NCBI GenBank assembly: GCA_008632985.1
Contig: QPGO01000135.1
Location: 124,001 to 188,000 of the forward strand
From: Psammoneis japonica
Lineage: Eukaryota
Direction: 5' to 3'
Length of the DNA stretch: 64,000 nt
The translations under genes and the position numbers were made by a program. Shown piece by piece: positions 36,555 through 64,000 of the stretch; position 1 is the first letter of the stretch, and each line of letters starts with the position of its first letter. The notes beneath the pieces were generated by a model that was not told where the DNA came from, did no database searches, and saw nothing but the letters and a program-made list of their open reading frames with translations.

Positions 36555-36810
36555 CCTTTGAGCAATCTGTCCAACAACTTTTGACATTTTTTGTTGCAGC
36601 ACCATTCTACAATGTCTTGGGAATCGCGCAGGGCAGGTGCATTTGCAAAAACGTCGAGTGGCAAGAGGCTCAATTGCACCACAAACTTGGCCGTTTATTT
36701 GATGTGGAAGACAAACACACCCATCAATTAAAATCTTGTGCTACGGAGCTAACACGTGGAATTCTGTGGGCCCAATGTCACATGGAGTCCCACCCAGCTA
36801 GAGGGCTGGA
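36555..36810 (+). mobile_element. MITE family partial copy (right part)
   Basis: Matches 1605-1850 and ends gagtcccacccagctagagggctgga. Confidence 0.75.
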
Positions 36811-37364: not shown

Positions 37365-37480
37365 ACACAAACAGATTTTTTGTTGAAAGCACAAGTTTTA
37401 ACATGTTTTTTGTTGAAAGAACAACTTTCAACAGATTTTTGTTGAAAAATCTAACTTTCAACAACTTTTTGTTGAAAGCA
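37365..37480. repeat. Second array of about four 30-bp palindromic units
   Basis: aactttcaacagatttttgttgaaa-type units, same family as 35615-35730. Confidence 0.8.
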
Positions 37481-37506
37481 GGGTGTCCGTTGAGTTTTGA
37501 CCCAAA

Positions 37507-43500: not shown

Positions 43501-44763
43501 CGACACTGAGCCTGTCTTTGACGAGAGTCGTTTTACCAAGTGCGATTGGGAAGAACATTGCCCTGGTGCAGCTGAACCAATGCTGCCGAATGTGCCAGAA
43601 GCATGTGGGAACAGCATGACCACCACTTGCTTTGTCGATGCTGATCACGCTGGATGCCGTGTGACGTGCAGGTCCCACACTGGGATCCTGACATTCATTC
43701 AACGAGCGCCCATCTTGTGCTGCTCTAAATGGCAGAACACCGTAGAGTCATCCACTTTTGGGTTGGAGTTCGTGGTGATGAAGACCACAGTGGAGCAAAT
43801 TGAAGCCTTGCGTTGCAAGCTTCGAATGCTCGGAATCCCCATGGATGGGGCCACCAATGTTTTCTGCGACAATGAGGCTGTCTTCATTAACTCAACCAAG
43901 CTGGAGTCTACGTTGAAGAAGAAGCACAATGCGATTGCCCATCACAGGACTTGTGAGGCACAAGCCGCTGGAACAGTGTGCATTGCTTGGGAAGACGCAC
44001 GCACAAATTTAGCGGACGCACTAACTAAGTTGTTGCCTGGACTGAAGCTCCGGGAAATCACAAGTCACATCCTGTGGTGAGTCCCAAAAGGGGACAAACC
44101 GAACAGGTTTGCCGTGCAGGTGTGGCTTTTCCCATCCCCAACATGAAAATGCCACCCTGGAATGGGGCAGCATCAGGTGGCATTTGTCTGTCAATCTGGC
44201 CCGAGCGGAGCTAGTGTCAGTTCGAGGGGACTGAACAAATGCTGATGTGCTGTCACGAACATGGGCAGTTTATGTGCCATTGGCTGTCAGTCCACTTTCA
44301 CTTATTCAGTGGTCCCAGTGGCGAAACATCTCACAATTCTAGAACCTGTTGATGCTGTTCAACAGTCTGTCTTGTCTTACACCCAATTCTTAGCCATCAT
44401 GGTGGCATTTATTCAGTTTTTCGGATCGCGTCGTATGTCGCGCACGTGCATTTCTACGTGTGACATTCTACGAAATTGTTTCTACTCCCTGTTTTGCGAA
44501 GCCAAAGGCTTTCTATTTTCAACATTTATGAGAGTGAAAATGCGCTGGGGTACATTCTTTAATGTCTGTAGAATGCACCCGGGCAAACTGTCAATGACGC
44601 ACGTCAAGCATGAAGGAGGAGATGTGTTCGTAAAATTGCCTCTTTTTCTGTTGGCGATCATTTGTATTTTCATTGCAGCACAAATTTACTGCAGAGCTCG
44701 CACGTAGAATTCTACGGGCCCCAATGTCACACGGAGTCCCACCTGCTGGGACTGGAACCCGTC
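37507..44763 (+). mobile_element. MITE split by the copia B plus insertion (37507-37566 and 44416-44763)
   Basis: Left terminus gacgtgttcgagc at 37507, right terminus ctggaacccgtc at 44763; TSD caaa at 37503-37506 and 44764-44767. Confidence 0.88.
37567..44415 (+). mobile_element. Decayed full-length Ty1/copia element (family B, plus copy)
   Basis: 184-bp LTRs 37567-37750 and 44232-44415; TSD gttt; gag from 38297, PR DLDSHVDAC, IN-RT ORF 39929-43051, RH ending 44080; PPT gagggga. Confidence 0.92.
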
Positions 44764-45040
44764 CAAAGCTGGAAATGTGACATCGGTTTCTGAACAATTT
44801 AATCTGATGAAAAGGCATGACAGAAATTGAAGGCAAATGGCAAGAATTCAAACAATAACTCCTTACTGCTGTCTAAATAGCAGATGAGTCTCCGCTCAGA
44901 GACCGTTGCAGGAGCCGAAAGACGTGTAAGTCGGTATAATCGGGCTACTGTCATTATTCTTGTGAGCCTTGTGGCTCGAAAGCAAACTACATCGCGCGTG
45001 AACGCGCGGAACTAAAGCACACAAAACTGTGCACGGTAAA

Positions 45041-47614
45041 CTAAACAGCGCGCGATGCTTCGCGCGCACCTAAATCCTGTTCAAATCCTGTCACTCCCCA
45101 GTTTGCTTGAGGAGCCACAGAAACAGATTCGACTTCGGATGGAATGAAGTTCCAGAACATGAGGGGGCGGAGAAGGTCCCAGATTTGGGAGTAACCCCAA
45201 TGCTTGCTGAGAATGTCAGCAGGGTTGCGGGAGCCTTCGATGAAGTGGAACTCAAGGTAACCAGAGGCAATTGCCTCACGCACACGGTGGAACGATAGTG
45301 CGGTGTGTCGCTTGTGTAACTTGGAGTGCGGGATGGTGGCACTGTCTACAACCGACTTGTTGTCACCGAACATGTAACTAACGTTACGGATCGGGACGCC
45401 AAGGTGGCGCAGGGTGATGCGCAGGTCGACAATCTGCTCAACACAAGTCCTTGCGGCAACAAATTCAGACCCGTAGGTCGCAGTCTCCATGGTGGCTTGT
45501 TTCTTAGAGAACCAATCAGCCGGGAATTTGTTGAGGAAGTGGAGCATTCCCATGACAGAGCGTCCGGTGAGCATGCAATGGTACAAGTTTGCATCGACGT
45601 AGTGGGTGGTAGTGACGAACTTGCCAAGGGGCGGTGGAGCGTCCTTCGGGATCATCTCTTCTGCTTCACCATGCACGGAATGCATCCATTCACAGGCCGG
45701 AGCAGGGAGATCCGAATAGTCGGGCTCTTCCGTGCGAACGCGGAGAGCACCGTGTCGCATCTTGGAGAGGTGCCCACAGACGCGTTTGGCACGATCCAAG
45801 TGGCCTTGACGAGGCGCAGCTCGGAAGCTAGAGAGTGACATGACGGCCGTGGCAATGTCAATTCGACCAAGGGACACTGCCCATTGGAGTGAACCAACAA
45901 GAGACTGGAACTTGTGAATGCCATCGGGTCCCAGCAGTTCGGAAGTGTCCAGTTCGGGGTGGTCACCCTTCTCTAGAGGTGACAGGGCGTTGGTGGTAGG
46001 TTTCTCCCCAAACAGTCGGGCACAGCTGTCGACCATGCGCTCGATGTACTTGCGCGGAGACAGGCACAAGGTTCCGTCGGGTTCCCGGGAAAAGTCGCAA
46101 CCCAGATGGAACTCAATGGGTCCCGTGCCCTTGAGCTTGAACTTGTGCTTTTCCGTGAGAGTGTCGACGAAAGATTGAGGGTCCTTCATGGCAATGGCGA
46201 GGTCATCCACATAAACGGCAATGTATTCACAGTGGTCGCCGTTCCTGCGCATCCAAATGTCGGGTTCGGCGCGGCAGGGGAAGAAGCCTTCAGCTCGCAG
46301 GCAGTCAGCGAAGCGCTCGTGCCAGCGGAGACCGGAGCTGCGCAGTCCATGCAGTGCCTTGTGGATGACAAGGATGTGTCCTTCGAGTTTGCCGAACTCG
46401 GGTCCAGCCACAATGTAAAGCTTCTCCTTGGTGGTGGCTTCAAGGCAGGCATTGCCAATGTCGGTGGCCCATGTCTCCAGCTCGTTGAGTTCGGCCAGGA
46501 AAATCATCAGCCGAAGGCCACGGAGGGAGACTACTCCGGAGCAGACACTGTCGACAGGTACGTCCGTGAGGTGCCCGTCGGCTACGAGTCGTGCCTTGTG
46601 GCGACCGTCGTGTTTCACGTCGCACACTGGGTGCACTCGGATCTTCTTGTGTCCCGCAGGAGGAGTGGAAGACTTGAAGGGCCCGCAGTCATGGAAGACT
46701 TCGTATTCGTCGAGTTGGTCCATCTCGAGATTGGTTGCGTCTCCCCACTTGCGGTTGCCGTTGCGTTCGTCTAGTGACATGGCGTGTTTGTAGTTCCGGG
46801 GAACTTCGCACCCACACTTGTAGCGAGGTGCAGTGCGGAAGGAGCGAAGCTTGGCTTGGTTGGCCATGCGAAATAGCTTCTTTTGGCGCCTCGCGATGGT
46901 GCGGAACCGCTTCCAGCCATCCGTGTCGAGGAGTCCGTTCTCTCGTGCATAGATGGCACAGGTGACGGGGTCGTCCTTGGCGATGATGGCAAGAGGCTCG
47001 GACGTGATCTCCCCACTTTCCCATTCAAGCATGATGTTGTAGCTGGAGCCTTTCCAGGTTGGGTCATGAGGCTTCAGAGGTCCTTCGTGTGACACGATGC
47101 GTCGAAATTTCCAAACAGTGGTGTCTTCGTCTTCTTGCTCAATGTGATTCATGATGTCATTGCAGGCAAGGACTTCCTCGTATTCGTCATTGTTGACAGA
47201 GCAGACGAACTTAGTGAGCTCGGGATTGCCGTTCACTTTCCATTCGTGGTCTTCGACGGCCTTGACGATGCGAGCTCTGTGGCGTTGTCCGTCCTCTTGT
47301 GGCTGCATGAGGAAGGTGCGTCCAATGATGTCTTGCGGATCGAAAACTGGCATCTTGGGTGTCCTGATCTCCCCATCAGGAGAGTCGACGGGGTTGTCGT
47401 CATGGCGAGATTTGATGATGGGTTCAGGTGGCTCCCCATCAGGAGGATCAAGACGCAGGTTTCGAACGGCAGGATCGGGGGTAGCGGAGCGGACGTTGGA
47501 CCGGCAGAGGATCTTCTGAGTCTCGTCAGATAGAATCTTGAAGGTCATCTGGTGGCCGACGTGCTCAGCAATGCCAACGAAGCGTCCACGCAACTCACGG
47601 GATTCAGAGGCCAA
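45041..47614 (-). CDS. pol: pol C-terminal part: integrase tail, reverse transcriptase (YVDD) and RNase H
   Basis: 857-aa frame with HKARLVADG, DIGNACLEA, YIAVYVDDL, YVDANL, GDNKSV, NPADILSK; joined to the upstream ORF by a 1-nt frameshift near 47608. Confidence 0.9.
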   Translation of the reverse strand: MASESRELRGRFVGIAEHVGHQMTFKILSDETQKILCRSNVRSATPDPAVRNLRLDPPDGEPPEPIIKSRHDDNPVDSPDGEIRTPKMPVFDPQDIIGRTFLMQPQEDGQRHRARIVKAVEDHEWKVNGNPELTKFVCSVNNDEYEEVLACNDIMNHIEQEDEDTTVWKFRRIVSHEGPLKPHDPTWKGSSYNIMLEWESGEITSEPLAIIAKDDPVTCAIYARENGLLDTDGWKRFRTIARRQKKLFRMANQAKLRSFRTAPRYKCGCEVPRNYKHAMSLDERNGNRKWGDATNLEMDQLDEYEVFHDCGPFKSSTPPAGHKKIRVHPVCDVKHDGRHKARLVADGHLTDVPVDSVCSGVVSLRGLRLMIFLAELNELETWATDIGNACLEATTKEKLYIVAGPEFGKLEGHILVIHKALHGLRSSGLRWHERFADCLRAEGFFPCRAEPDIWMRRNGDHCEYIAVYVDDLAIAMKDPQSFVDTLTEKHKFKLKGTGPIEFHLGCDFSREPDGTLCLSPRKYIERMVDSCARLFGEKPTTNALSPLEKGDHPELDTSELLGPDGIHKFQSLVGSLQWAVSLGRIDIATAVMSLSSFRAAPRQGHLDRAKRVCGHLSKMRHGALRVRTEEPDYSDLPAPACEWMHSVHGEAEEMIPKDAPPPLGKFVTTTHYVDANLYHCMLTGRSVMGMLHFLNKFPADWFSKKQATMETATYGSEFVAARTCVEQIVDLRITLRHLGVPIRNVSYMFGDNKSVVDSATIPHSKLHKRHTALSFHRVREAIASGYLEFHFIEGSRNPADILSKHWGYSQIWDLLRPLMFWNFIPSEVESVSVAPQANWGVTGFEQDLGAREASRAV

Positions 47615-50600
47615 TCGGAGTCATCGAGGTGGAAGTACACGGGTTCCCACCAGTGAAAGCGAAGCAATGGGCTGATGTCCGGGGTGGAGCCAGTGAGAGT
47701 CTCGAGGGGCGTGCGCCAGTGGAGACGTGGGGACGCTGTATGGTTGAGCATGAAGCACACGTACATGAGCGCCAGCAGCCATGTATGGGCGGGCGAACCA
47801 AAACGATCCATGACAGTGTTCGCCATGCGCTTCACGGTCTGGTGTCGACGCTCGGCAAAGTTTTGGTGTTGCTGGTGAGGCTCACTTTGCCAGCTAGAGA
47901 TGAAGAGGGCGCGCAGGATCCCGAGCACTTTGTTGCTGATCTCAACTTGAGCACGGTCGCTAATGAGTTTGGATGGGGCACCACGTTCACGGATCTGATC
48001 CTCGAGTGTGTTGACAAACTCTTTGTCCGTCTTAGTGCCGTAGACGTCAGTGACGGTAGACTCGGTGCCAACAAACAGTTGGGCGCTGGTGCAACCAGAG
48101 TCGACGGCCGGGGTGTCGGCATAAACGGTGTCAGTGGCGACAGGCTCGTTGCGGCGGTGCACATTAAGGGCGGGGTTGGGTGATTTGTAGGCCTTGCGAA
48201 GGTGTGTACCGGCGGGCATGCGGGCGTACTGCGTGGTGCAGTCAAAAGTACGACGGACCGTATCGGCAGGCAGGAAGCCAAAGCAAGGCCGAAGAGACTC
48301 GAAGGGGGGGTCCTTGGGCTGTACAGTGCGCTCCGGAGGTGGAACGTCATCGCCCTGGGGGCCAATCGCATGCAGATGACACTCGTAGAACACGTCGTCG
48401 TTCGGAATGAGGTGATCATCGAGGGCGGACGCGTGATCGGCAGACAAGGAAGCGGACATGATGGTCTCGTTGACAACGACACGATGACGGTAGTTGCCGT
48501 ATTCGTCAAATAGGTTGGCAGTGGGATCGTCCTGTAGGTCAGAGATCGCGTCGTACCACTGGTCGTCGTCAGTGACAGAGTGATCGAGGACGGAAGGGTC
48601 CCATGTGTCATCACCGGTGAGGATGACATGGGGCAGGGTGTCCCATTCGGCGTCATTGTAAGGTCGCATGGCAACATAGGGCAGGCCAGCCTTGATGTCA
48701 ATGGGGATGACATAGCCATCAGGAGTGGCAATACGTTGCAAGCCGTTGGGCACCTTGACAGAGCGATCGTTGACATCCTGTTTGTACCATTCGAGCTGGC
48801 CGCAGGAATGGATGGTCTTGCCCTTGCCCGTGTATGCGCACTGATGGAGGATGGCGATGACGGGACCACGCTGGGTCTCAATAACGGCACCAGCGGTGAC
48901 AATGGGGATGTCCACCAATTGATGATCGTCAATGCCCTGAACGTCGACTTGGCGAGAGGTGCGTGCAATGACGCGAACGTCGTCGCCAGCAATGCCGCCG
49001 TTGGCCCCACGATCGACTAGAGCGCCAGTGCGTGTGGAGCGATGAGCAGAGGCAGAGTAAATGACATTGTGGTTGTCAACGCGGCGGCAAGTGCGGCCGT
49101 TAAGTTCCATGTCATCTGCAGAAGCTGGCGGGGTAGAGGAAGCGGCGGATGGCCCCGGTCGACTGGCATTGGGGGCTTGGTTAGGAGACAACAGACGTTG
49201 CAGATCACCGGGTGGCAGTGGCTTGCGCTTGGTGAGGTGCGCCAGGATGGGATTATCCGAAGTGGCGTCCACATGTGGAGCGGAGTCACCAGAGTCAGCA
49301 GGAGTCGTGTTGGACAAGTTGACATCACCGTCACTCCCAAGGCGTTGGTCGTGAAGGTTGGCCGTAACAGACTCATGGTAGTTGCTGGCTCGCGGGTTGC
49401 GGGGAGGTGGACGAGAATGCTCAAGGATGATCGCCTTGGAGGAATCGGGCAACGAATCCCAGAGCCGTTGGTGGTCGGGAGGGAGACGTCTCCATTGGAC
49501 ACCGGTGAGGCTGGGACCGCGGGTGCAGGCAGCATTGGCTTGGAGGACGTCAACGTCGCTGTCAATGTCGTAGAACACATCGTCGGACGGTTCCTCGGAG
49601 TAGACGTCGTGTGCGCATATGGCGCGTCGGGGAGCTCGAGGTGTCGTCTTGGGTTGAAACGTGCTGTCGCACTGAGCTGCCGCGGAGAGGAGCAAGCCAC
49701 AGCATTGATCGTATGTGAGGCTCTTGCCACTCTGCGTACGATGCTGATCAGCTTGGTTCTTGACAGCACGGAGTTCCTCGACAGGGTGCACGGCATTCTC
49801 GAGCATGACGCGCTTCTGTCCTTCAGAGAAGTGGTCACTGGCCGGGATGAGTGCCTCGCACTTGCGCAACTGATCTTGCCAATGAAGGATGAACCCGTGG
49901 GTCGGACCTTTCCAAGTGCCATCACCAAGACGCGCGGTGGTGAGGTACGTGAGCAGGGTGGAGGACTCGATAGATGCGCGGGTGGAGGCAAGCGCGCACT
50001 CAGACAAGGAGCGGCAGACGGTCTGTGCGTCAGAAGACCCCACATTTTCGCGAATGAGAGCCTTGCCCTTGTCGGTGAGAAGGATGCGTTCGAAGACGGC
50101 GAACATGTACTTTTGCTGTTCAGCAAAGAGCAGTTTGTCTTCGGGGCTGGTCGGTTTGTACGACGAGTCTAGAATGCACTCGACGTCTTGGGCACGGGCT
50201 TGTGCCACAAGTGAGGTGTGCCAAGTGTGCCACTGCTTGTCGGATTTGAGAGCCGTGAAAGCGGTGGGATCACGCTTGATGCCTCGCTTGAAGTCCCGCA
50301 CCGGGTCGCGTGCCTTGGTCGGGTTGGTGACATGTGGAGGTGCAAGGGGTGAGCTGCCGATGGACACAGAAGACATGTAGTCGGGGCTGAGGCGGCAGGC
50401 AAGGAACTCGTCATGCGTGAACAAAGAGGAGTCGTTGGCAACGTCAAGACCTTTGTGTGCTTTGACAATGTACAGACTGACTAGTGCTGCTAACATGTTC
50501 TTATAACCACGGGGCAAAGGGATTACATTAGTGCCGTTGTCGTACTCAAGCGAGTCGATTTGGGACGGTATGAACGTGAATAGTTCCTGATGCGAGTCCG

Positions 50601-50709
50601 TGCCGTCTTGGGCCAAAGCCAAACGAAGAGGACTCCCAGCACCTTGGGCAAGCACGGTTCCAACCACGTGCTCGAAACCATCGGTTTGTTGCTGACGAGT
50701 GAGAACCAT
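47545..50709 (-). CDS. gag-pol: gag-protease-integrase polyprotein part
   Basis: ATG at 50709 (MVLTRQQQ); FKRGIKRD gag motif, LVDRGANGG protease, ATDTVY/LISDRAQ/QNFAER integrase. Confidence 0.9.
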   Translation of the reverse strand: MVLTRQQQTDGFEHVVGTVLAQGAGSPLRLALAQDGTDSHQELFTFIPSQIDSLEYDNGTNVIPLPRGYKNMLAALVSLYIVKAHKGLDVANDSSLFTHDEFLACRLSPDYMSSVSIGSSPLAPPHVTNPTKARDPVRDFKRGIKRDPTAFTALKSDKQWHTWHTSLVAQARAQDVECILDSSYKPTSPEDKLLFAEQQKYMFAVFERILLTDKGKALIRENVGSSDAQTVCRSLSECALASTRASIESSTLLTYLTTARLGDGTWKGPTHGFILHWQDQLRKCEALIPASDHFSEGQKRVMLENAVHPVEELRAVKNQADQHRTQSGKSLTYDQCCGLLLSAAAQCDSTFQPKTTPRAPRRAICAHDVYSEEPSDDVFYDIDSDVDVLQANAACTRGPSLTGVQWRRLPPDHQRLWDSLPDSSKAIILEHSRPPPRNPRASNYHESVTANLHDQRLGSDGDVNLSNTTPADSGDSAPHVDATSDNPILAHLTKRKPLPPGDLQRLLSPNQAPNASRPGPSAASSTPPASADDMELNGRTCRRVDNHNVIYSASAHRSTRTGALVDRGANGGIAGDDVRVIARTSRQVDVQGIDDHQLVDIPIVTAGAVIETQRGPVIAILHQCAYTGKGKTIHSCGQLEWYKQDVNDRSVKVPNGLQRIATPDGYVIPIDIKAGLPYVAMRPYNDAEWDTLPHVILTGDDTWDPSVLDHSVTDDDQWYDAISDLQDDPTANLFDEYGNYRHRVVVNETIMSASLSADHASALDDHLIPNDDVFYECHLHAIGPQGDDVPPPERTVQPKDPPFESLRPCFGFLPADTVRRTFDCTTQYARMPAGTHLRKAYKSPNPALNVHRRNEPVATDTVYADTPAVDSGCTSAQLFVGTESTVTDVYGTKTDKEFVNTLEDQIRERGAPSKLISDRAQVEISNKVLGILRALFISSWQSEPHQQHQNFAERRHQTVKRMANTVMDRFGSPAHTWLLALMYVCFMLNHTASPRLHWRTPLETLTGSTPDISPLLRFHWWEPVYFHLDDSDWPLNPVSCVDASLALLSTSATR

Positions 50710-51630
50710 GGTAGACAAAAGTGGTGTCAGGACAATCAATTCTGGTTGGGAAGCGAAGGTAGACTCGAAACTTGGGTGAGAACAGACTTGACTTGAAACA
50801 GACTTGACTTGAAATCTTGAACTATCTTAAAATCAGAAGTCGCCGGGCTTTGTCATCCCGTTCGTTGTTAAGTGCTAAACTTCCTATCCGGTCCGTAGAG
50901 TTGTGCCGGCACGTCCGAACCCGCAGCTAGTGGCGCTTTGGGTTGCTTATGAGCGGAGTAGCGGGTTGTAAACCCCTGCAGGTAAGCTGACTAGAGGTGG
51001 ACAAGACCCCCGAACCGTTCTTATTTTATATCGGTTGGATTTCCCGATCAGGCTGGCCAGTTGACGTAGGCGTTAGGCGCTGTGGACGAACGAACAAACG
51101 CGGGAAAGCACCCTCGCCCCAACGTAGGCTGTAATCACGGCTGCTTGCTCTCACAGTCGTCCTCGTGGACCTAGTAGAACTGTAGAGCACCAGTAGTCCG
51201 GGGTAGATCAGGTACAATGGACTCGGTGTGCTTGTAGAGTGGTAGCAAAACCGTAGTCCGAAGAGTGGGTACAGGTTCTTGGCCGTGAAGATATGTATAT
51301 ATATATGTCTTCAGCGACGAAGATCCCCTGAATATGTAGGGTTCTTGACCGTTAACCGATGAATAGGTATATCAAGGGATGAGGATCAAGGATAGACTTG
51401 GATATGACCGTTGAATGTATGTCTTCAGCGATCAAAGGTAGTATAATCAATCCAGATATCCAGCGGTAAGGAGACTTGACGGTGACGTTAACTTCCTGCC
51501 GATGCCCTGGTATTGAATGCGCGTAGACTTGCTGATGTATGTAGAATATATACGGAGGTCCACGTAGAATTGAAATAGCGTCGTTGGTAAATCAACGACG
51601 ACGATGGCGGTTGCTCAATGGGTTGACAAT

Positions 51631-51647
51631 GCGCAAGACTGTTAATC
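51631..51647 (-). promoter_or_regulatory. Primer binding site, probably for a 5' half tRNA-Asn(GTT)
   Basis: Directly inside the 5' LTR; the plus strand reads gcg caaga ct GTT aa tc, an anticodon arm. Confidence 0.65.
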
Positions 51648-51929
51648 TGACAGAAATTGAAGGCAAATGGCAAGAATTCAAACAATAACTCCTTACTGCT
51701 GTCTAAATGGCAGATGAGTCTCCGCTCAGAGACCGTTACAGGAGCCGAAAGACGTGTAAGTCGGTATAATCGGGCTACTGTTATTATTCTTGTGAGCCTT
51801 GTGGCTCGAAAGCAAACTACATCGCGCGTGAACGCGTGGAACTAAAGCACACAAAACTGTGCACGGTAAACTAAACAGCGCGCGACACTTCGCGCGCACC
51901 TAAATCCTGTTCAAATCCTGTCAAGGCAA

Positions 51930-52850
51930 CTGCAATGTGCTCAACCAACATGTGTTGTGGGGGATGAAAAGGTCCATTTCACCAGAGTCGGCAGTGGGAA
52001 TCAGATGTGCCATGCCTGCACACACGAGCATGATGGGACAGCTTTGACTTTCAACAGATTTGAGGTGACTCCCAGCTCAAAGCCAATCAACTGGGGGGCC
52101 CAGGTTGCCAGAGCATGCCCATCATTCTGGATCATGCCTCTTGGTTCCCGCCATGCCTGCAATGGCGTGAGATCTCTAGAGGACACCAGATGAACACATG
52201 CGTGGGGCACCTGGATCAGGTGCTGAATGTTTGTGCCATCTGTCTGCAGTGGAATGAGGTCATTCTCATCAGCTGGTTGTTGGCTGCAGCGGGTGCTGCT
52301 TGGGGCCCAGCCAGGTTGAATGGGGCACTGGGCAATTCCAAAATGTTGAAGTTGCCTGGCAACACACACCCCTGGGAATGAAACACACATCCATCCCATG
52401 GTGAGATGGCAACGGGGTCACAAATGTGCACTGATGGCATGCAAGCAACCCTGCATCCTGTCATGGTTCACCAAGGCCAAGAAAACCCTGGGTGCCACGT
52501 TGCCAAGGTCGACAATGTGCTTGGGCAATGTGGCAGAGGGCACTGGAGTGGCTCCATTGGTGAAGTGGTGGTTGAGGAGGTCTGCGCACTTGCCTTCCAA
52601 ATGGCACCTTTGGCCATCCATTTCTAGTGGCGGGTCTTGGGTGGTGCTAGCAGCGCACCTCTGGCAGCAACTGGGGGGACAGCAGCCACAACAACATGGC
52701 ACATGTTGCTCTCTTGGCATCAAATTGCAGCTGCTGCTGCAGCCTTGGCAGGCAGCAATGAGTTGCATCGAAGAATGCCATTGGCACTCCAATCTGTTCA
52801 AGGGTGTGGGTGACATGGAGAGCATCTGTCCCTCCCTCTCGCAGCTGAAA
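51930..52850 (-). pseudogene. Probable ORF1 remnant of a tyrosine-recombinase retroelement
   Basis: VPHACVHLVSSRDLTPLQAWREPRGMIQNDG resembles DIRS/Ngaro ORF1; recall only. Confidence 0.4.
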
Positions 52851-53240
52851 TGAGCCCTCAGAAATTTTCTTGGTTTACTTGGGAGGAAGATGTCAAGACA
52901 ATTGTTCATGCAGCATGTGCACATCTCTTGATGTGCGTTCAAGAAGATGCACATGTGACTCTGTCTGTCATTCTCTGTTGTTCTTTTGACATCTGCTGTT
53001 CTCTGGTCATGAGCACAATGTGACATGCACCTCCTCCAAAGAATCACATCAGGGAGAGAAAGGAATGAGATGCCGCGCATTTGTGGTCTCAAGGCAGCTT
53101 CCTTTTTGGATGATGACAGTGCCATTGGACTTTGTTTCATGCATTTCACGTGAGCCAAGTTGGTGCAAGGTGAGTTTGGATCAATGAGGGTTGTCATCAT
53201 GGAGAGAAACAAGGTCTCCTACTTTGGAGTCATGGTTGAG

Positions 53241-54199
53241 TCACCAAGAGTTCTCACATGCATCATCTGCTTGAGCTTGTTGTTGGTGGCAAGCACAGAT
53301 GGTTGGCCAGTGGATGTTGCATTGTGAGGGAAGGATCATGTCACATCCAAAAGCAAGTTGGCCAGCAGAGGCTTGCATGACAGTGTGCACCATCGAATTT
53401 GCTGCCCAAGTTGCCAAGGCTGTTGTGGCATTCCACGGATTCAGTTGATTGAACGCATCAGGATCATCAACTTGTTGGGCCTGTGTGCAGCTCCACAAAA
53501 CATTGTGGGTCCATTCAAGCAGTGAATTTGATTGTGGGTTCTGTGCTGTCACAGGCTTGGACTTGTTCCCATGAGAAACCAGTGGTTCTTGAAATTCAAC
53601 GCCTGCAAATTCCGCACTGTTGCCATGTGTGAAACAGACCAGGTGCAGAAAATTGCATGACCATGCTTGGTTGAATGCTCTGGCTGTTTCCAGAGCTGAA
53701 ACTGTGGAAATTTGTTCCGCTCCAAAACAGCAAGCAGCCATGTCCACCATTGCAAGGGCAGTCAGTGCCAAACTTTGGTGGTTGGCACTGGAGCCAGCAG
53801 CAAAGGCAATTGTTCTAATGGTGTGGACTGCTGCCTGTGACCTGGGGTCAATCTGAACGGCTTGCATGTCCTTGAGAGGTGTCTTTCCACACACTCTGTG
53901 GCTCTCTTTTGACCTCAGACAGGTCTGGCATTGACCCATCTTGGTCTTGACATCTCGGGTCAAACCCTGCCAAGAATGGCAGTGCTGTCTGAAGGTCTTT
54001 TCCATCCGTTGGATGCCTGGATGGCACAAATTGACATGACACCAATTTAACAAAGGTGCTTGTAGAGCTGCAGGAATGACAATCTTGTCCTTAAAAGGGC
54101 TGAACAAAGTTGTCCATCCTGCACCATGCAACTGCAGTCGGACAATTTCTTCCAACTCAGGTCGGTTTGAGCAAGTTGCAACACTTCTTTTGTGCACAG
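53241..54199 (-). pseudogene. Ty3/gypsy integrase remnant
   Basis: IVIP...WCHVNLCHPG...CQTC zinc finger, GNSAEF, NPQSNSLLE, VHTVMQASAGQLAFG. Confidence 0.85.
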
Positions 54200-57100
54200 T
54201 GACAGAAATTGAAGATGACTGGGTGGAAGAAAACAACAACTCCTTGCTGCTGTCTAAATGGCAGATGAGTCTCCATGCAGAGACTGTTGCAGGAGCCGAA
54301 AGACTGGTGTCGTTGATGTCGGCACTGCTGTCATCATTCTTGTGAGCTGTGTGGCTCAAAAGCAAACCACATTGCGCAACGAGCACGGAACCAAGAGCAC
54401 ACACAATTGCATGTGACAAACTAAAATCTTGTTCACATCCTGTCACTCCCCAGTTTGCTTGAGGGGTCAACAGCAACAGATGCAAGGTCAGATTGGTTGA
54501 AAGCCTCGGGATCGAAGTTCCAAAACATCAGAGGATGAAGGAGGTTCCAGACTTGGGAGTAACCCCAATGCTTGCTGAGGATGTCAGCTGGGTTGCAGGA
54601 ACCTTTGATGAAATGAAACTCAAGGAAACCGGAAGCAATCGCCTCACACACATGATGGAATGAGAGGGCAGTGTAACTTGGATTGTGGGATGGCAGCACT
54701 GTCCACAACTGACTTGTTGTCCCCAAACATGCAACATGTTTCACGAATGGGGATGCCAAGGTAATGCAAAGCAATGCATGGATCAATGATCTGCTCAACG
54801 CATGTCCTTGTGGCAACAAACTCAGATCCATGCGCAGCAGTCTTGACTGTTGCTTGTTTCTTGGAGAACCAATCAGCTGGGAACTTGTTGAGAAAATGGA
54901 GGATGCCAGTGACAGAGCATCCAGTGAGCATGCAATGGAACAAGTTTGTGTCAATGTAGTGTGTTGTGGTGATGAACTTGCCAAGCAGCTCTTCTGCCTC
55001 CCATGCACCGATTGGGCCCAGTCATGCACGGGCTTGGGAAGGTCTGAATGGTCGGGCTCTTTGGTGTGCACTTGGAGGGCACCATGATGCATCTTGGAGA
55101 GGAATCCGCAGATGCATTTGGCATGGTCTGGGTGGCCTTGATGGGGTGCTGCATGGAAGCCAGACAGAGACATGACAGCCAAAGTGGTGTCAATGCAATC
55201 AATGGATGCGGCCCATTGCAGGGAACCAACAAAGGATTGGAATTGGTGGATGCCCTCCAGTTTGAGTAATTTGGAGGTGTTGAGCTCAGGGTGGTCTCCC
55301 TTGTCAAGGGGGGAAAGCACATCAGTGCAGGGCTTTTCCCCAAAGAGGCATGCACAGCTGTCAACCATGCGCTCAATGTGCTTGTGAGGAGCAAGGCACA
55401 GGGTGCCGTCTGGATCATGGGTGAAGTCACAACCAAGATGGAACTGCAATGGTCCAGTGCCCTTGAGCATGAACTTGTGCTTCTCCATGAGAGTGTCTGC
55501 AAAAGCCTGGGGTTCCTTCATGGCAAAGGCCAGGTCGTCCACATGCACTGCCATGCACTCGCAGTGGTCACCATTCCCACACAGCCAGATGTCGGGTTTG
55601 GCTTTGCACGGGAAAAAACTTCAGCATGCAAGCAATTGGCAAAGTGTTCATGTCATCTGAGGCCAGAGCTGCGGAGTCCGTGTGAGGCCTTGTGGATGAC
55701 AAGGGTGTGTCCTTCCAGCTCGCCAAGTTCAGGGCCTGCTGCAATGTGCAGCTTCTCCTTGATCACAGCTTTGAGACAGGCGTTCCCAATGTCGGCAGCC
55801 CAAGTCTCTAGTTTGTTGAGTTTGGCCAGGAAGATCATCATTCGCAGGCCACAGAGAGACACTGCTCCAGAATGGACACTGTCGACAGGTGCATCTGTGA
55901 GGTGTCCATTGGCAACAAGCCTTGCTTTGTGCCGTTCGTCATGTTTGACGTCACAGACGAGATGCTCCCAAATCTTCTTGTGTCCTGGTGGAGCACTGGA
56001 ATCCTTGCAATGTCCACAGTTGTGGAAGACCTTTTGCTCATCAAGCTGAGTCATCTTGAGGTCCGTTGCATCTCCCCACTTGCGGTTGCCGTTGCGCTCA
56101 TTGAGGGCCAAGGCATGCTTGCAGTCCTGGGGCACTTCACACCCGCACTTGCAGCGTGGTGCAGTGCAAAAGGAGCCCAACTTGGCTTGATTGGCCATGC
56201 GAAACAGCTTCTTCTGATGCAGAGCTATCTTGCGGAAGCATTTCCAGCTGTCGGTCTTGAGCAAACCGTGTTTGCGTGCGCAAATGGCACATGTGACCAC
56301 ATGTGATGGGGTCGTCCTTGGCAATGATGGCAAGGGGTTCAGATGTGATCTCCCCATTCTCCCATTCAAGCATGACGTTGTAGCTTGAGCTTTTCCAAGA
56401 GGGATCATGGGGTCACAGTGGTCCTTCATGCGATGCGATGCATCGGAACTTTCAGAGGGCAGTGTCTTTGTCTTCTTGCTTGATGTGGTGCATGATGTCA
56501 TTGTGGGCCAGGACTTTCTCATGTTCATCATTGTTGATGGAGCAAATGAACTTGACCAGTTTGGGTTTGTCTCTGATTTTCCAGTCATGGTCCTCAATGG
56601 CTTTGATGATGCAAGCTCTGTGGCATTGTCTGTCTTCTTGTGGCTTCATGAGGAAGGTGTGTCCGATGATGTCCTTGGGTTAAAGACTGGCATTTTGGGC
56701 ATCCTGATTGCCTCCCCCTCTGATGAATCCGGTGAATCCTCGGAGTTGTGTCAGGATTTGATGATGGGTTCAGCAAATTCCTTTTCTGGAGGATCAAGAT
56801 GCAGGTTGGGAGTGGATGTTTCACAGGCGGAATGCACGTTCAAGCGGCAGAGAATCTTCTGAGTGTCATCAAAAAGAATCTTGAATGTCATGTGATGACC
56901 AACGTGTTTGGCAACACCAAGGAAGCCACCATGCAACTCGCGTGATTCAGATGGCCAGTCAGAGTCATTGAGGTGGCAGCACATGGGTTCCCACCATTGA
57001 AAGTGCAGGAGCAGGCTGATGTTGTGGGTAGAGCCGGACAGCACCTTGGTGGGGTTACACCAGCGAAGCTTGGCAGACGCTGTGTGGTTGAGCACAAACA

Positions 57101-57380
57101 CATGCACATCATGGCCAGCAGCCATGTGCAGCCTGGAGATCCAAAGCAATCCATGATGGTGTTGGCCATGGTCTTCACAGTTTGGTGGCAGTGTTCAGCA
57201 AAATTCTGGTGCTGTTGGTGGGGCTCGCTTTGCCAACTGGAGATGAAGAGGGCACGAAGGATGCCGAGAACTTTGTTGCTGATCTCAATCTGAGCACGGT
57301 GGCTGATGAGCTTGGACGGGGCACCATGATTGCGGACAATGTTGTCTTCGAGCATGTTGACAAATTCCTTGTCAATTTTG
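54200..57380 (-). mobile_element. Old 5'-truncated relative of copia family A (IN-RT-RH and 3' LTR 54200-54445)
   Basis: Collinear with 45094-48020; same PPT; RT motif decayed to AVHVDDL. Confidence 0.9.
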
Positions 57381-58269
57381 GTTCTGTTGGGAAGTGCAAT
57401 GCCTCTCATGGAGCTGCTTGAGGAAATGAAGCACAGAGGCTTTCCAGTGTGCACGACTCCTCAAGCACAAGACCCATGATGTGCTCCAGGAGATCCACGC
57501 AACTGAGACCATCACAACTGGCCATCAAGCAAGTGACTCACCTTGTGCAAAGGGTCTGCACAGGATGTGTGCAGCACTGAGAGTGAACAGTTCCACGTGA
57601 GGACTCAAGCTCTCTGTTTCTCACTGTTGCGCATGCACCTGCTCTGTGCAAAACAGTCTCAAAATTTTTCACACAACACAGAAAATCTCTGTCTCCACAA
57701 TCCAGGTGCTTGTGTCTTGTTCCTGCACAGGTCACAGCAACATTGCTCCCAGCAAGTGCAAGAACACCCTTCAATTGACCAACCAAAACTGTCAGCTGTG
57801 CTGCTGAGAAGAATGGATGCAACAAAATGTCATTTTCCTGCTCTCCATGGCTGTTTGGTTAAGAGGGCAGCAGAAAGCAAAGAACATGAAAATGTTGCTG
57901 GTGCAGCAAAGAATGTGTGCAAACACTTTGCAGAACTTTTGCTGCCCCTCAACAATGGCAGTGATGAACCACAAGTGCTGCCAAAGAATGAGAGAATTGA
58001 TCTCCTTGACTGCAGCATGCCACATGCTTCTCAGTTCAAGAATGGAACTCCAACATTCAACCCGCTTGACACAAATGCTGCAGATGTCACGTTTCATGAG
58101 CAATTCAAGAATTTTGTTCTAAAATTCATTCATTGCAGATGAGAGAGAAACTGACACTGATGACTGCCAAGATGGCAGCCAACTGCACAATTCTTGCGCT
58201 GTTTAGATGCGCGCCAAATGGCCAAGACAAAAGTGTCACATGAAAAGACTTGAGACAGCTTGCATCTGG

Positions 58270-59250
58270 GTGGCCACTTGTGAAAGGTGGAGCTTGAGAA
58301 TGGAGTCAAGGCATGGGGTTTAAGGTCTTCTTAGCACACCCAGGTGGTGGTCAAGAACATGAAAACTTGCTTGGCGTCAAGGGGTGAGAAGCTGCCAGCC
58401 AAGGCCCCAACTCCTCTCAGCAGCTTGCATCATCCTGAACTTGACATGGGAACTGTCACCATTGGATGCAGCCCACTGCCAGTTGCTCATTGGCATCCCA
58501 CATTGGATGGTTGAGCTTGGTCAACATCTGTCTTGAAGCCTCAATGATGTCCTTGCACTTGGCATCACCACAAGAGAGACACCTCGAACAGGTGCACCAT
58601 GTCTTTGCACACCTCAAAAAGTGACACAACACAGAGATGGCATTTGATCCCAGCAACCCTGTTGTTGACAAAGCATTGTTTGTGCAACAGGACTGGACAA
58701 CCTCCAAGTTTGGCCTTGCTGTGTGGGATGAGATGTCTGCCAACATGCCTCAAGCTAGAGGTCTTGGTGTGACTGTGCAAGCCTTTGTGGATGCAAACCA
58801 TGCAGGCGACTCATGGTTTCCTTGAGTGTCTTAACTCTTCCCCTGTGCACTGGATGAGAAGCAGACAAGTGTCAAGACAAGCTCGTTTGGGTCCAAGTTC
58901 ACCAGCATGAAGCAATGCATGGAGTGCATTCACGGGCTTTGGTGCAAGCTCTGGATGATGGGAATTCTGGTCATTGGATCGGCTTGTGTCATGGGGGATG
59001 ACCAGTCTGTCCTGGCAAACACCTCTGTCCCTGACTCAACGTTGAAGAAGAAATTCCATGGTCTGGCACACCACTTTGTCTGTGAGGGTGGAGCACATGT
59101 TGAGTGGGAGACGGCGCATGTCAATGTGCACCTGACTCCCAGCAATCTGCTGACCAAGATGCTTCCATCTGGAGAAAAATGCAATCAGTTCATGGGAATG
59201 TTTCTGCACCATCTTGGTGGGAAGGTGGAGCGGGCTGTGGCTGGCTGAAC
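58270..59250 (+). pseudogene. Copia RT/RNase H remnant (family D)
   Basis: AFVDANHAGD, LWCKLWMMGI, GDDQSVLAN, TLKKK, SNLLTK. Confidence 0.8.
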
Positions 59251-59614
59251 CACCTTCCAAAGCAGAGGGTTTCATCTGGAGAGTTCCCTGCCAGAGATGT
59301 GGGTTTTTGTTTGGACTTTCTCATTTGGTGGATGTGTTTGTTTGAAATTTACCATCAAATGATGTTGATGAGTCCCTTTGTTGGCAATCTAGCTTGACAA
59401 TGTAGCCAAGTCTAGATGGAGGGGAGTGTTTTAGTTTTTCCATTGTTGGATGGACAAAGTGACTGATGCATTTGTTGGCTCGGTTCTTGGAAAGTGAGAC
59501 TTTGTGACAATGTCTTTTACATTTTTTGAGAACATTGGTGGCAGACCGAGAGCTCCACTTGAGGATTGTCTCACAATTTGAACAGATCACGTTACATTGC
59601 TGATTTGTTCTGTC

Positions 59615-61043
59615 AATGCACTTTCAGCAGGAGACCACCCTGAGCTTGACACCAGCAAACTGCTTGGCCTTGATTGCATTTGTCAACTCCAGTCCTTGGT
59701 TGGTTCTCTGCAATGAGCTGCATTGCTCAGTCACATCAACATCACTGTGGCTGTCATGTTTTTCTCTGGCTTCCACATGGCACCCTGTCAAGGCCACCTG
59801 GATTGCACCAAACTTGTCTGCAGATGCTTGTTCAAGACACAACATGGTGCCCTGTGTGTGTGTGTGCCAAGGAACCTGACTGTTCAGACCTTCCCAAGCT
59901 CATGTGCAACTGGGCTCACACCACATGTGGTGAATTGGGAAAACTGATTCCCAAAGATGCACCCATGCCTCTTGGCCAGTTCATCACCATGACTCACTGT
60001 GTTGATGTGAACTTGTTTCATTGCATGCTTGCTGGTCACTCAGTGACAGGATTTGAACAGGATTTAGGTGCACGCGAAATGTCGCGCGCTGTTTAGTTTA
60101 CCGTGCACAGTTTTGTGTGCTTTAGTTCCGCGCGTTCGCGCGCGATGTAGTTTGCTTTCGAGCCACAAGGCTCACAAGAATAACAACAGCAGCCAGATTA
60201 TACCGACTTACACGTCTTTCGGCTCCTGTGACGGTCTCTGAGTGGAGACTCATCTGCTGTTTAGACAGCAGTGAGGAGTTGTTGTTTGAATTCTTGCCAT
60301 TTGCCTTCAATTTCTGTCACTCAGTCACAGGCATCATTCCTTTCCTTGATGAGTTCCCAGCTGATTGGTTCTCCAAGAAACAAGCCACAGTCCAGACTGC
60401 AACTTGTGGATCCAAGTTTGTTGCCATCAGGATGTGCTAGATCATTGATCTGCCCACCACATTGAGTCACCTCAGCATCCTGATTGTTGACACCTGTTGC
60501 ATCTTTGGGGACAACAAGTTGGATGTGGACAGTGCCACTGTCTCCCACACTCCAAGTTGCACAAGTGACACACTGCCCTCTTGTTCCATGGTGTGCCTGT
60601 GAGGTGATTGCCTCAAGGTCCCTTGAGTGTCACTTCATTGAAGGTTCCTGCAATCCCACTGACATTTTCAGCAAGCACTGGGGTTGCTCACAGATTTGGA
60701 CCCTCCTCCGTCCTCTCACATTTTGGAACTTTGATCCCAAGGCCTTTGGCCAATCTGATCTCCAATCTGTCTCTGTGGCTTCCTCAAGAAAACTGGGAAG
60801 TGACAGGATTTGAACAAGATTTTAGTTTGTTGCACACAGTTGTGTGTGCTCTCAGTTCTGCTCATGACTGGTGATGCAGTTTGTTCTTGGGCCAGATGGC
60901 TCACAAGAACACAACAGCAGTGCAAATGTCATGACGCATGTCTTTCAGCTCATGCAACTGTCTCTGCACAGAGAATCATCTGCCATTCAGCAGTGAGGAG
61001 TCATCATTTTCTTCCACCCATTTCCCCTTCATTTTCTCTGTCA
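59615..61043 (+). mobile_element. Old family A relative: RT end, RNase H and 3' LTR (60801-61043)
   Basis: CVDVNLFHCMLAGHSVTG, FPADWFSKKQATV, NPTDIFSKHWG; PPT aactgggaag followed by tgacaggattt. Confidence 0.85.
60044..60319 (+). mobile_element. Solo LTR of the young family A element
   Basis: 276 bp, reverse complement of 51648-51923; perfect TSD CTCAG (60039-60043, 60320-60324); removing it restores the host RNase H frame. Confidence 0.95.
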
Positions 61044-61574
61044 TTTTGTTGCTTTGTGTTCTGCAGCAACAAAGAAACATGTAACTGGCTCAAATCAATG
61101 CTGTCTCAATGGGTGGATTTGCCCAGTTTCACAAATGCCAACCTGGCCAGCTCTTGCAGATCACTTTGCATGGTGCACACCATGAATTTGTCACATGCAA
61201 GCAGAGCACCTTCTGCCCTTTAGAAGCAGCACAAGACAACACACAAATGGCGCCATGAAGCACAGCTTCCAATTGCCAAGGTCAAAGCCACTTGCACAAT
61301 GGAAAAGAAACAACAGGTGTGGGTGTGCACATCAGTAAAAAAACACAAATTTCAAGTGCTGGATGCAAGCTGATTCAAAAGCATGCCATTGTTGGTGAGG
61401 AGGAGGAAAAGAAAATTCAAACTCAAGGCTCCCTCTCTCTTGTGTGCTGTCAAACATCATCCAATGTGCCCCCTTTCCTGCAGTGCTGAGTTTTCCACCC
61501 TGGCCAGGCTTTGTGAAAAGAAGCAAAGGGGTGGCAATCAATGGGTTGATTGCCCTCTGTTGCTCTCTTGCTCT

Positions 61575-62056
61575 GCTTCCTCTGGTGACTGATGCACTCT
61601 TGGTTGAGCTCTCAGGTGGGTTGTGGCACTGGCCATGAACACCAGACCTCAAGCTGGAGACCAAAATCTGGGAACCCGGATTTGGAACTCTAGCCAGAGA
61701 GCTGCAAAGGGTGGGTGGCATGGGCTGCAAGCAAAAAACTTGCTCTCTTGTCTCATCAATGTGCAGTGCAACATTGATGAAAAAGAGGAGTGAGCTTGAT
61801 GCAGCTCGGATGGTCTTGGCAGACTCATGCACTGCTTCCACAACACATGCTGCATGGCAGAAGCAGATTGTGAAAACAACCCCCTGCTTGCACAAGGGGG
61901 AGGCACAGACCACTGTCTCTCATTGGTCTCTGACTCTGTTTCCTCCAGTGACTTGTGCACTCTTGGTTGAGATCTCTGGTGGGTTGTGGCACAGGCCACA
62001 AACACCAGACCTGAAGCCAGAGACCCAAATCCAGGAACCCGGATTTGGAGCTCTAG
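61575..62056 (+). repeat. About 120-bp direct repeat pair (61575-61695, 61938-62056)
   Basis: gcactcttggttgag...ggaacccggatttgga.ctctag occurs twice. Confidence 0.75.
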
Positions 62057-62399
62057 AGCCACCACTCCACAGGGAGACAAGAGGCCACACACAAGAGAGA
62101 GGGAGAAAGTCAAGGAGAAGCAAGAAGAGAGGCAAGGTGAAGGAGGAAAGGCAAGTGGAAGTGGCCAAAGCATGTGGCACTGTGAGAGCGGCAACACTTG
62201 GCCTGGAGACCGGGCCAGGGAGAGAAGAAAATGAGTCAGGTGTGAATGCCAAGCAAGGGGAAGAAGCATGTTGTGAAGCCACACTGGCAGGGCTGAGAGA
62301 CAGTCCATGGGATTGGGCGACAGACCCCACCAGTTGCTCTGAAGACATGCCAACTGCCCAATGACCGCAAAGGTAAAAGAAAAACCAAGGCTGAGTGTC

Positions 62400-64000
62400 A
62401 AGGAGTGCACCAATCATGGTTTGCACCATTGGGGAGCTGACAGTGCAGAAACAGTCATGCAAAGTAAAACTTGACAGCATCTGAGTTCCAGTGGAGACAA
62501 CAGGCCGCATCTTTGATGGGGCCCCCAGCATTGAAGAGAGCAACAGCTGCTGTTGCATGGTTGGGGTGGGAAACCAGGCATTTGATGTGCTGACGCAAGC
62601 AGTGGGAGGGATCCAGATGTGCTGCTTTGCAGGCATTGCACAAGAAGCTGACACATGTTTGCTTTGAAGGAAGGTGTGCAAGCCTGATGGCGAGTTCTGA
62701 AAGGCTCCTGGGGGCTCATCCAGTGGGATTCTGAGTCTCCAAGTGTGACCAATGATGGCTTGTGTGGCTTTCACGGGGCAGAAAAAACCATCAAGGCAGC
62801 GGCAACATCAAATTGTGAAGTTCTCCTTGCTCTTGTCATGGCAAAAGAGAAGGTGGAGTTCTGTGGCTTCTTCAGTGAGCTTGTGATGGGGAGGCAGGGC
62901 TGTGAGATTGGAGGTGTAGAATGTGAAGTCCAATGTGATGATTGCAAAGGGCACTCTTCCATTCCCTGGCTTCAGGGTTCCAAGGGAGCATGGCAAACAC
63001 TTGACCTTTTGGGATCTTGCTCTGAGCACGCTCTGCAAGGCAGAAACTGGTGAAAAGGGAAAAATTCCCAATCTGTGATGGCAGCAAAAAGATCCAGAAA
63101 AGTGGCTTCTTGTGAGGCCAGCTGGGCTTGGCACTTGAGTTCCATGTGCCCATGCATCTCCCCAGAGATGGAATGTTTTTTGTCATGCTTTTTTCACCAG
63201 GTCCAGTGCTGGTGGATGATTTCACCAAAGAAGGGAAGCAACTGTGACTTCCCATTGAGTTCTTGGCAGATTGGAGCATCGATGCCAAAGTGATGCTTCA
63301 ACCAGGTGCCTGCAATGTTGAGACAGCTGACAAGGGAGTCTTTGGCCAGGATGGTTGCATTGTGGAGGGACTCACCCTCAGCAAGGCTGAGCAGGTGACA
63401 GCTGAGAATGGGGATGGTCTGGGTGGCCATTGGTTTTGCAAGACTGATGCTCAAGCCAGCACGCAAAGTGACCAGCGTGAGACTCAAAAGTTGTGTCATT
63501 TGCACTGCGGACATGTCCTTGGTCAAGTCTTGTCCAACAAGCAATGAAATCACATTGCCAAGCTCAGAGGGGACATGGCATGCTTGCACTGTTGAGAGCC
63601 AGAAGCATTGCTCTGCAATGGATGCCCAAGTTGGGTGGTCCGCTGGGTGCAAGAGAGTGTCCGCCTCATCATTGGTGAGGCCAGCTGTGAGGCTTGCTGG
63701 TCGGGGATCCCTGAAAATCAGTGGCAAACAGAAGAGCATTGAGAAAGTGAGCAAGGCACTGGAGAATGGGGCGGTGTGTACAACTTGTGCATTCAACCAT
63801 GAGAGCGTGCTTGTGTTGTCCAAGCAAGCATGCAGCATCTGTCCACCAACTCACACCGCACCATGCTGCCAGAAAATCAGGGCCATGCAGAGGTTGATGA
63901 TGATTGCAATGAACTCCAGCACGTTGATGTGGAGCCCCTTTTTGTCAATGAGGGGCTCCTGCATGCTCCTTCATTGGGAAGCCCCATTTCACAAGGTTGG
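62400..64000 (-). pseudogene. DIRS/Ngaro-like retroelement remnant: RNase H followed by probable tyrosine recombinase
   Basis: HINVLEF...DNTSTLSW...GLTNDEAD RNase H pattern; downstream LFCHDKSKEN and PVKA segments resemble the YR core. Confidence 0.55.

Follow-up and report, generated by a model that had tools for sequence, protein, structure and literature searches.

A 64,000-nucleotide stretch of Psammoneis japonica DNA (contig QPGO01000135.1, positions 124,001 to 188,000; referred to below as the window) contains a young Ty1/copia retrotransposon of 7.1 kb (44818-51923, minus strand) and a solo long terminal repeat (LTR) of the same family among older transposon remnants. Comparison of sibling copies indicates, with what we consider high probability, that transposon DNA undergoes transitions aimed at TpA dinucleotides after its integration, yielding TpG and CpA, and that CpG decay proceeds alongside. 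The data described below show the signature along with its polarity, its post-insertion timing and its dependence on neighbouring bases.

Three-state sites in sibling LTRs

The paired LTRs of the young element are direct repeats, 97.8% alike by repeat search and blastn. The 3' LTR (44818..45093, minus strand, 276 bp) was located by repeat search, has TG..CA ends and follows a purine-rich tract in element orientation, and the 5' LTR lies at 51648..51923 on the same strand. The solo LTR (60044..60319, plus strand) sits within an older copia remnant, is inverted relative to the pair and is 95.3% and 94.6% alike to its two members (blastn); it is identified as a true solo LTR by the CTCAG target-site duplication (TSD) on either side of it, at 60039-60043 and 60320-60324. 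When the three LTRs were compared as an ungapped alignment of 276 columns in element orientation, three dinucleotides were found to differ in every copy. At columns 215-216 the 3' LTR has TA (44878..44879), the 5' LTR CA (51708-51709) and the solo LTR TG (60258-60259); at columns 186-187 the corresponding states are CA (44907..44908), TA (51737-51738) and TG (60229-60230), and at columns 141-142 they are TG (44952..44953), TA (51782-51783) and CA (60184-60185). A sequence-only reading of this DNA had described TA, CA and TG in all three orders at three LTR dinucleotides, and the alignment reproduces exactly these states and positions.

Variation among the three LTRs amounts to 17 columns at 12 sites, and 15 of the 17 columns fall at TA, CG or CA/TG steps. 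Besides the three-state sites, at three further sites the pair shares TA where the solo LTR has CA or TG, columns 29, 87, 95 and 200 show CG versus CA/TG, and columns 37-38 read CA in the 3' LTR (45056..45057) and TG in both the 5' LTR (51886-51887) and the solo LTR (60080-60081); what remains is one transversion site and one other transition site. TA steps account for 11.6% of LTR positions but for 9 of the 17 variable columns (binomial P = 3.8e-5). The paired LTRs alone differ by six nucleotides, all of them transitions at TA, CG or CA/TG steps, with none elsewhere. Three of these six lie in TA steps (P = 0.024), rising to five of six on the assumption that columns 37-38 were once TA (P = 1.5e-4). 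Columns 37-38 probably represent a TA in a G_T flank, the most mutable class described below, that has been lost from all three copies, although a former CG may have been the ancestor. All TA sites that the paired LTRs have lost are found among those lost in the solo LTR (3/3 within 6 of 16, P = 0.036), an overlap above that of a random choice of TA sites, indicating that some TA sites are hotter than others. The earlier reading had placed the remaining pair differences in one dinucleotide set: their location held, at column 87 (CG versus CA between the paired LTRs) and columns 37-38, whereas the CG differences belong to a separate decay of CpG.

TA as the source state

The states TA, CA and TG alone give no order and an independent test of polarity was therefore needed. 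Forty metagenome proteins of normal Tyr content (P0002-P0041 of 120 listed) were aligned as an outgroup to the reverse transcriptase (RT) of the young element, and 22 columns with Tyr (codons TAY) in at least 80% of these proteins served as polarity columns. Six old copia remnants, contributing 84 residues at these columns, carried Cys 27 times, His 13 times, Phe 13 times and Tyr 6 times, such that 40/84 residues were Cys or His, whereas conserved His or Cys columns had become Tyr in old copies in 1 of 99 cases (Fisher P about 1e-15 against the loss of Tyr). The young copy had Tyr at 10, Cys at 6 and His at 4 of the 22 columns, and retained 97 of 98 conserved His, Cys, Phe, Trp, Arg and Gln columns. 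The Tyr test therefore places the flow from TA to TG and CA. Cys outnumbers His at former Tyr codons (27 versus 13, P 0.04), which fits an edited A before a pyrimidine.

Composition is consistent with this polarity. Old DNA, that is the 55.7 kb outside the young element, has an observed/expected ratio (o/e) of 0.11 for TpA, 0.43 for CpG, 1.70 for CpA and 1.69 for TpG; ApT (0.92) and AA/TT (1.15) are ordinary and show no depletion. In 1-kb steps the TpA o/e of old repeats is 0.02-0.25, and that of the young element is 0.52, with a CpG o/e of 0.99. Over the window as a whole (1..64000), in effect a transposon graveyard, TpA o/e is at most 0.43 and mean CpA/TpG o/e at least 1.52 in 56 of 64 1-kb windows, and the eight exceptions are those of the young element and of the DNA flanking it on the left.

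Repeats within the window that align at 85% identity or more contained 127 TA-versus-CA/TG, 305 CG-versus-CA/TG and 209 CA-versus-TG differences and no CG-versus-TA difference. The absence of CG-versus-TA steps indicates that TA and CG are two separate sources draining to one CA/TG pool. CpG decay is a second, separable process, and its mark is also seen in old copies as conversion of conserved Arg to His or Cys (35/145 residues) and in CA/CG/TG three-state sites, of which two three-copy families have 6 and 2. No CG was found at the TA/CA/TG three-state sites in any of four LTRs (the three young ones and an older LTR remnant at 54200-54377), and 16 of about 20 LTR CpG sites are intact across all three young LTRs. 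Explaining a three-state site requires two hits from a TA ancestor and at least four from a CG ancestor. Taken together, composition, the Tyr test, the lack of CG-versus-TA steps and the lack of CG at three-state sites bear out the earlier proposal that TA was ancestral, and support TA as the source state with CA and TG as its sinks.

Timing of the changes

Since a single template gives rise to both LTRs of an element, the pair starts out identical at insertion. The three to four TA-step differences between the paired LTRs must therefore have arisen in chromosomal DNA. A second internal clock for both decay processes is provided by a head-to-tail tandem duplicate (8689..11781, plus strand) with units of 1.55 kb that are 98% alike and contain no recognised domain. 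Its copies, with 9-12 TA each, differ at 5 TA-versus-CA/TG and 3 CA-versus-TG steps, at 15 CG-versus-CA/TG steps among about 60 CpG, and at 3 other transitions. From this duplicate, change per nucleotide at TA and CG steps is estimated at some 40-65 times that at positions outside TA, CG and CA/TG, with TA roughly 65-fold. The paired LTRs and the duplicate thus agree with the earlier suggestion that the changes were made in genomic DNA after insertion. The changes had also been expected to inflate LTR dating, and this is the case since the raw divergence of the pair is 2.2% (6/276), none of which falls outside hypermutable steps.

Influence of flanking bases

In old DNA the ratio of TA to its products, TA/(CA+TG), was lowest where TA follows a purine and precedes a pyrimidine (ATAT 0.001, ATAC/GTAT 0.004, GTAC 0.010), was 0.013-0.042 where just one of these two conditions holds, and was highest, at 0.059-0.089, for CTAA/TTAG, CTAG (0.070) and TTAA (0.089). 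These values suggest that TA is lost fastest in RTAY and slowest in YTAR (R, purine; Y, pyrimidine). No such order of flanks was seen in the young element. Among the three LTRs, four TTAG sites are unchanged in every copy and 6 of 11 one-sided sites vary, and in repeat pairs within the window the proportion of differing TA sites declines across the three flank classes, from 64% through 58% to 43%, although these numbers are small and the overlapping alignments are non-independent. At [A/G]TAG sites among the 40 variable places for which other copies could be seen in sequencing reads (see below), 9/9 changes are at T, as the flank rule predicts. The rule may correspond to an edited A whose 3' neighbour is a pyrimidine or to a changed T whose 5' neighbour is a purine, both of which fit equally.

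TA-poor copia loci in metagenomes

Among 63 related metagenome loci, 60 have a TpA o/e of at least 0.51 and three (L035, L029 and L014) lie at 0.13-0.31. When the Tyr test was applied to the 57 loci spanning at least six conserved Tyr columns, Cys or His had replaced Tyr at 12/15 columns in L035, 14/16 in L029 and 10/20 in L014, and at no more than one column in each of the other 54. The same three loci show 0-1 Arg to His/Cys changes at 25-27 conserved Arg columns and a near-normal CpG o/e of 0.74-0.80, TpA thus being lost with no accompanying CpG decay. L029 and L035, which are 94.5% alike, differ at 25 TA-versus-CA/TG and 20 CA-versus-TG sites with just 8 CpG differences among about 102 CpG, and R_Y flanks are over-represented at their double-hit sites (Fisher P 0.007). 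This pair displays opposite-strand hits on former TA in a separate data set. That different copies had been hit on opposite strands was part of the sequence-only reading, and it is upheld by the frequency of CA-versus-TG differences both in other repeat pairs of the window and in this metagenome pair, in which CpG is hardly mutated. The TpA process thus occurs in uncultured organisms, and these loci, coming from other assemblies, speak against an artefact of a single assembly.

Evidence from sequencing reads and alternative explanations

Several observations weigh against TA as the source, and they can be read as reverse polarity, in which a cytosine deamination, whether like repeat-induced point mutation (RIP) or of another kind, converts CpA/TpG to TpA and TA is derived in each LTR. 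The older LTR at 54200-54377 has CA, CA and TG at the three-state sites. Under majority rule, two three-copy families show 7 and 7 apparent TA gains against 3 and 1 losses; we read this result as near-saturation of the source states, at which majority rule is uninformative and lends no support, and apparent CG gains equal losses as well. Contigs from sequencing runs of one public sample, possibly the source of the assembly itself, gave the states of other copies at 40 of 441 variable places, none of them in an LTR, so that the family state at the three LTR sites lies outside this set. At 17 of the 29 such places inside the element the window has TA and CA or TG accounts for 34-100% of read depth; the others include one CA in the window versus TA, two CA versus TG on the same contigs, three CA/TG versus CG, one CG versus TG and three of other kinds. 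Over the whole stretch covered, places in run X1 comprised 263 T>C or A>G, 138 C>T or G>A and 33 transversions; this tally and the 17 places speak for loss of TA. At 45296, 48883 and 51067, CA or TG reaches 96-100% of read depth and the window copy has TA. Pure TA loss at these three places needs most copies to derive from a later, already mutated master, and a gain of TA in the window copy is locally simpler. Reverse polarity nevertheless predicts TA-rich old repeats, the opposite of their measured TpA o/e, as well as conversion of His and Cys to Tyr (1/99) rather than the 40/84 conversions found in the other direction, and CA versus TG at a single step requires a TA or CG intermediate regardless. 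We therefore consider it very unlikely. Also unfavourable to our account, the mutated strand was predicted correctly from the flanks in just 51/79 repeat-pair cases, 5/9 in the LTR trio and 5/8 in the metagenome pair, and the window is without a host gene, so that a genome-wide bias, instead of targeting to foreign DNA, may underlie the pattern.

The other explanations share particular features with the data. CpG decay is active here, as judged from the CpG o/e of 0.43 in old DNA, four CG-variable LTR sites and the Arg replacements, and CG, like TA, is one step from both CA and TG; a CpG ancestor at the three-state sites could thus have given TG and CA through methyl-CpG deamination and TA by a second hit. 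Four LTRs without CG at these sites, despite most LTR CpG being intact, the absence of CG-versus-TA steps, indicating that TA is not reached from CG, and the 20 CA-versus-TG sites accompanied by just 8 CpG differences in L029/L035 all argue to the contrary, and producing TA from TG or CA is a TA-creating change, of a kind that is rare by the evidence of composition and of the Tyr test, leaving this origin with little probability. Copies would differ from birth if ADAR-like A-to-I editing with a 5' U preference acted on RNA before reverse transcription. Such editing agrees with the neighbour preference of ADAR as described in the Discussion of 10.64898/2026.01.13.699255, and could account for differences between the solo LTR and the element or between the window copy and its family; it is hardly to be reconciled with three to four TA-step differences between LTRs made from the same template stretches, with the same pattern in the tandem duplicate and in old non-transcribed debris, or with the mutations of the alga Bigelowiella natans, which according to the same preprint appeared, in the course of mutation accumulation, in chromosomal DNA that is single-copy and transcriptionally silent. 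Strand-specific miscalls caused by base modification are known for some long-read methods, and a modified base at TpA could in principle be misread such that the consensus picks TA, CA or TG at random, a concern to which the single origin of all runs adds. However, word-based contigs of run X1 at a depth of 31-44 agree with the TA-poor old DNA with no other letters over 330-918 bp, depletion grades with element age and appears as Tyr to Cys/His replacement in reading frames, and the pattern recurs in separately assembled metagenome contigs, which makes a sequencing or assembly artefact extremely improbable. Finally, TpA is mildly under-represented in most genomes (PMC3829696), and selection against stop codons, UpA-sensitive RNA decay or TATA-like signals, rather than mutation, might be invoked. 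The depleted DNA is dead transposon debris (91 of 96 long open reading frames (ORFs) without a domain), depletion is 5-50 fold, the differences between the young paired LTRs are mutation events and loss of conserved Tyr is opposite to what protein selection would be expected to produce; selection is almost certainly not the cause.

Proposed mechanism

Under TpA-directed mutation of integrated DNA, the A of TpA would become G on either strand, turning a TA step into TG or CA, and sister copies that began as TA would end as TA, TG and CA at one place. The process would continue until TpA was nearly gone, with CpG to TpG/CpA decay as a parallel and separate course, both feeding the CpA/TpG pool. 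The chemistry is most plausibly enzymatic deamination of adenine to inosine, as proposed for B. natans, although a thymine modification that mispairs with G may be an alternative, and the activity may be aimed at foreign or repeated DNA as a defence. In its widest form, as a programmed defence mirroring fungal RIP and based in several eukaryotes on an adenine-directed or thymine-modifying DNA editor that acts on TpA, best in RTAY, independently of CpG methylation, the proposal is tentative, a real possibility to which we do not commit ourselves; the TA-poor metagenome copia elements suggest its presence beyond B. natans. If it is true, the editor abolishes Tyr codons and TAA/TAG stops in integrated retrotransposons, paired LTRs become built-in rate clocks and the flank rule offers a handle on the enzyme.

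Comparison with known mutational systems

A literature search for the TpA to TpG/CpA signature found a single description, a preprint on the marine alga B. natans (10.64898/2026.01.13.699255); a search on repeats of this alga yielded nothing of use. As reported there, two integrated viral regions acquired 231 new mutations, 230 of which were A>G/T>C, all on TpA; the process was episodic, with mutations in 11 of 15 mutation-accumulation lines, and had a rate of about 6e-7 per site per generation. The process was confined to foreign regions, where it was about 1000-fold above the remaining genome, reverse-transcriptase and DDE domains were over-represented in coding sequences poor in TpA, and an ADAT2-like adenine deaminase was proposed (10.64898/2026.01.13.699255). 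The present locus fits a process of this type, and the kind of process is accordingly already in print in one preprint: common to both are the TpA target, TpG and CpA products, the AT-to-GC direction, integrated chromosomal DNA of foreign origin and TpA depletion with CpA and TpG enrichment, the 56 of 64 1-kb windows above being those that pass thresholds like the preprint's. The two differ in that the targets here are LTR retrotransposons (copia and gypsy) rather than integrated viruses, that erasure is deeper (o/e 0.11 over 55.7 kb versus the 0.45 given for the nucleocytoplasmic large DNA virus region of B. natans), that these 55.7 kb lie in one window here, the preprint counting 124 clusters of 3 kb or longer across the B. 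natans assembly, that CpG decay runs alongside, and that a tetranucleotide flank preference is seen here, the words trinucleotide, downstream and flanking being absent from the main text of the preprint.

Fungal RIP likewise makes dinucleotide-specific transitions in DNA on either strand, ruins repeated or foreign DNA and inflates the divergence of copies, but its chemistry and polarity are opposite, CpA being converted to TpA and repeats becoming TA- and AT-rich (PMC2621366), whereas here TpA is destroyed and G+C rises. Methyl-CpG decay also takes a source dinucleotide to TpG/CpA on either strand and gives three-state sites and inflated LTR ages; it covers only the CG-versus-CA/TG differences (LTR columns 29, 87, 95 and 200) and can neither yield nor consume TA. 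Deaminase-type hypermutation recorded in LTR elements is also known from APOBEC action on LTR retrotransposons and retroviruses (PMC4866542), but this converts C to U on cDNA while reverse transcription is under way, so that G>A/C>T changes are present from insertion, and not the post-insertion A>G/T>C changes at TpA found here. As a separate candidate cause, dinoflagellate-type 5-hydroxymethyluracil was considered and dropped: contigs of run X1 add up to just 141 Mb at a depth of about 35-57 on unique parts, and the available text of the study mapping this base in Breviolum reports no sequence motif (PMC11071213).

A dinucleotide-specific AT-to-GC mutator of chromosomal DNA has only just been reported, and the present data add retrotransposon targets, LTR-based timing, near-complete erasure and a flank preference. 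They expose an end state with TpA o/e of 0.02-0.25 over tens of kilobases, Tyr replaced by Cys or His and TGA as the sole common stop triplet. The preference for RTAY over YTAR is testable by in vitro deaminase assay, and the conserved-Tyr test is a simple route to the signature in metagenome contigs. Such genomes mislead the dating of elements by LTR divergence as well as ORF calling and the classification of repeats.

The young copia element

The young element has the features of a Ty1/copia retrotransposon, namely LTRs with TG..CA ends, a 5-bp TSD (AGGCA on the plus strand, left 44813..44817 and right 51924-51928) and a copia-type RT. The latter is encoded by an ORF at 45041..47614 (minus strand) matching the Pfam family RVT_2 (E 6.7e-26), in which 10 of the 22 outgroup-conserved Tyr positions are Cys or His. 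Upstream lies an ORF of 1064 amino acids (47545..50739, minus strand) in another frame, at the place where gag, protease and integrase are expected; it matched no Pfam family at E<=0.001, its best match being to an unrelated family at E 0.006. Metagenome relatives of the element likewise show RVT_2 as their sole listed domain, and the upstream domains of this copia-like lineage may be very divergent. The two ORFs overlap at 47545-47614. As they are in different frames, the polyprotein frame is broken once, in this overlap, where most read contigs of other copies have an insertion or deletion relative to the window; the break seems private to the young copy or to the assembly.

Read-contig depth in the public sample was about 35-57 on unique parts and summed to 70,000-130,000 on the young element (run X1 contigs total 141 Mb), from which the family comprises in the order of a thousand or more copies, the contig-depth sum being a rough guide. 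An exact-pattern scan for a TA- and CG-free LTR end gave no matches in genome contigs and none in the viral contigs searched, and the closest protein relatives among the matches listed were only 51-70% identical to the young copia protein.

Other features of the window

An older related copia with approximately 78% DNA identity to the young element lies at 54200..57460 (minus strand, LTR remnant at 54200-54377) and has a TpA o/e of 0.04-0.13; of its 28 conserved Tyr, 9 have become Cys and 9 His. An old Ty3/gypsy-type remnant at 12443-18433 (plus strand), with aspartic protease, RVT_1 and RNase H, is equally TpA-poor, indicating that the process is not copia-specific. No host gene, marker gene, rRNA, tRNA or other Rfam match was found within the 64-kb window, and 5 of the 96 long ORFs outside the young element have transposon domains. 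Stop triplets over 1-64000 number 220 TAA, 197 TAG and 1503 TGA, and this roughly sevenfold scarcity of TAA and TAG results in long stop-free stretches in all six frames (107 reaching 140 codons or more), which would lead gene calling from ORFs astray.

A repeat of approximately 340 bp lies to the left of the young element (44414-44760), with further copies at 17081-17417, 17469-17811 and 2656-2987; its summed read depth reaches about 190,000, above that of the copia element, and three in-window copies have 6 CA/TA/TG three-state sites in 348 columns. In runs X2 and X4 a contig from another copy of this repeat departs from the window at a loose end at 44687 and enters A+T-rich sequence with 5 TpA in the 30 letters seen. 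TA-rich DNA is thus present in the same sample, which hints that TpA depletion is regional, although the A+T-rich continuation could be organelle or foreign DNA.

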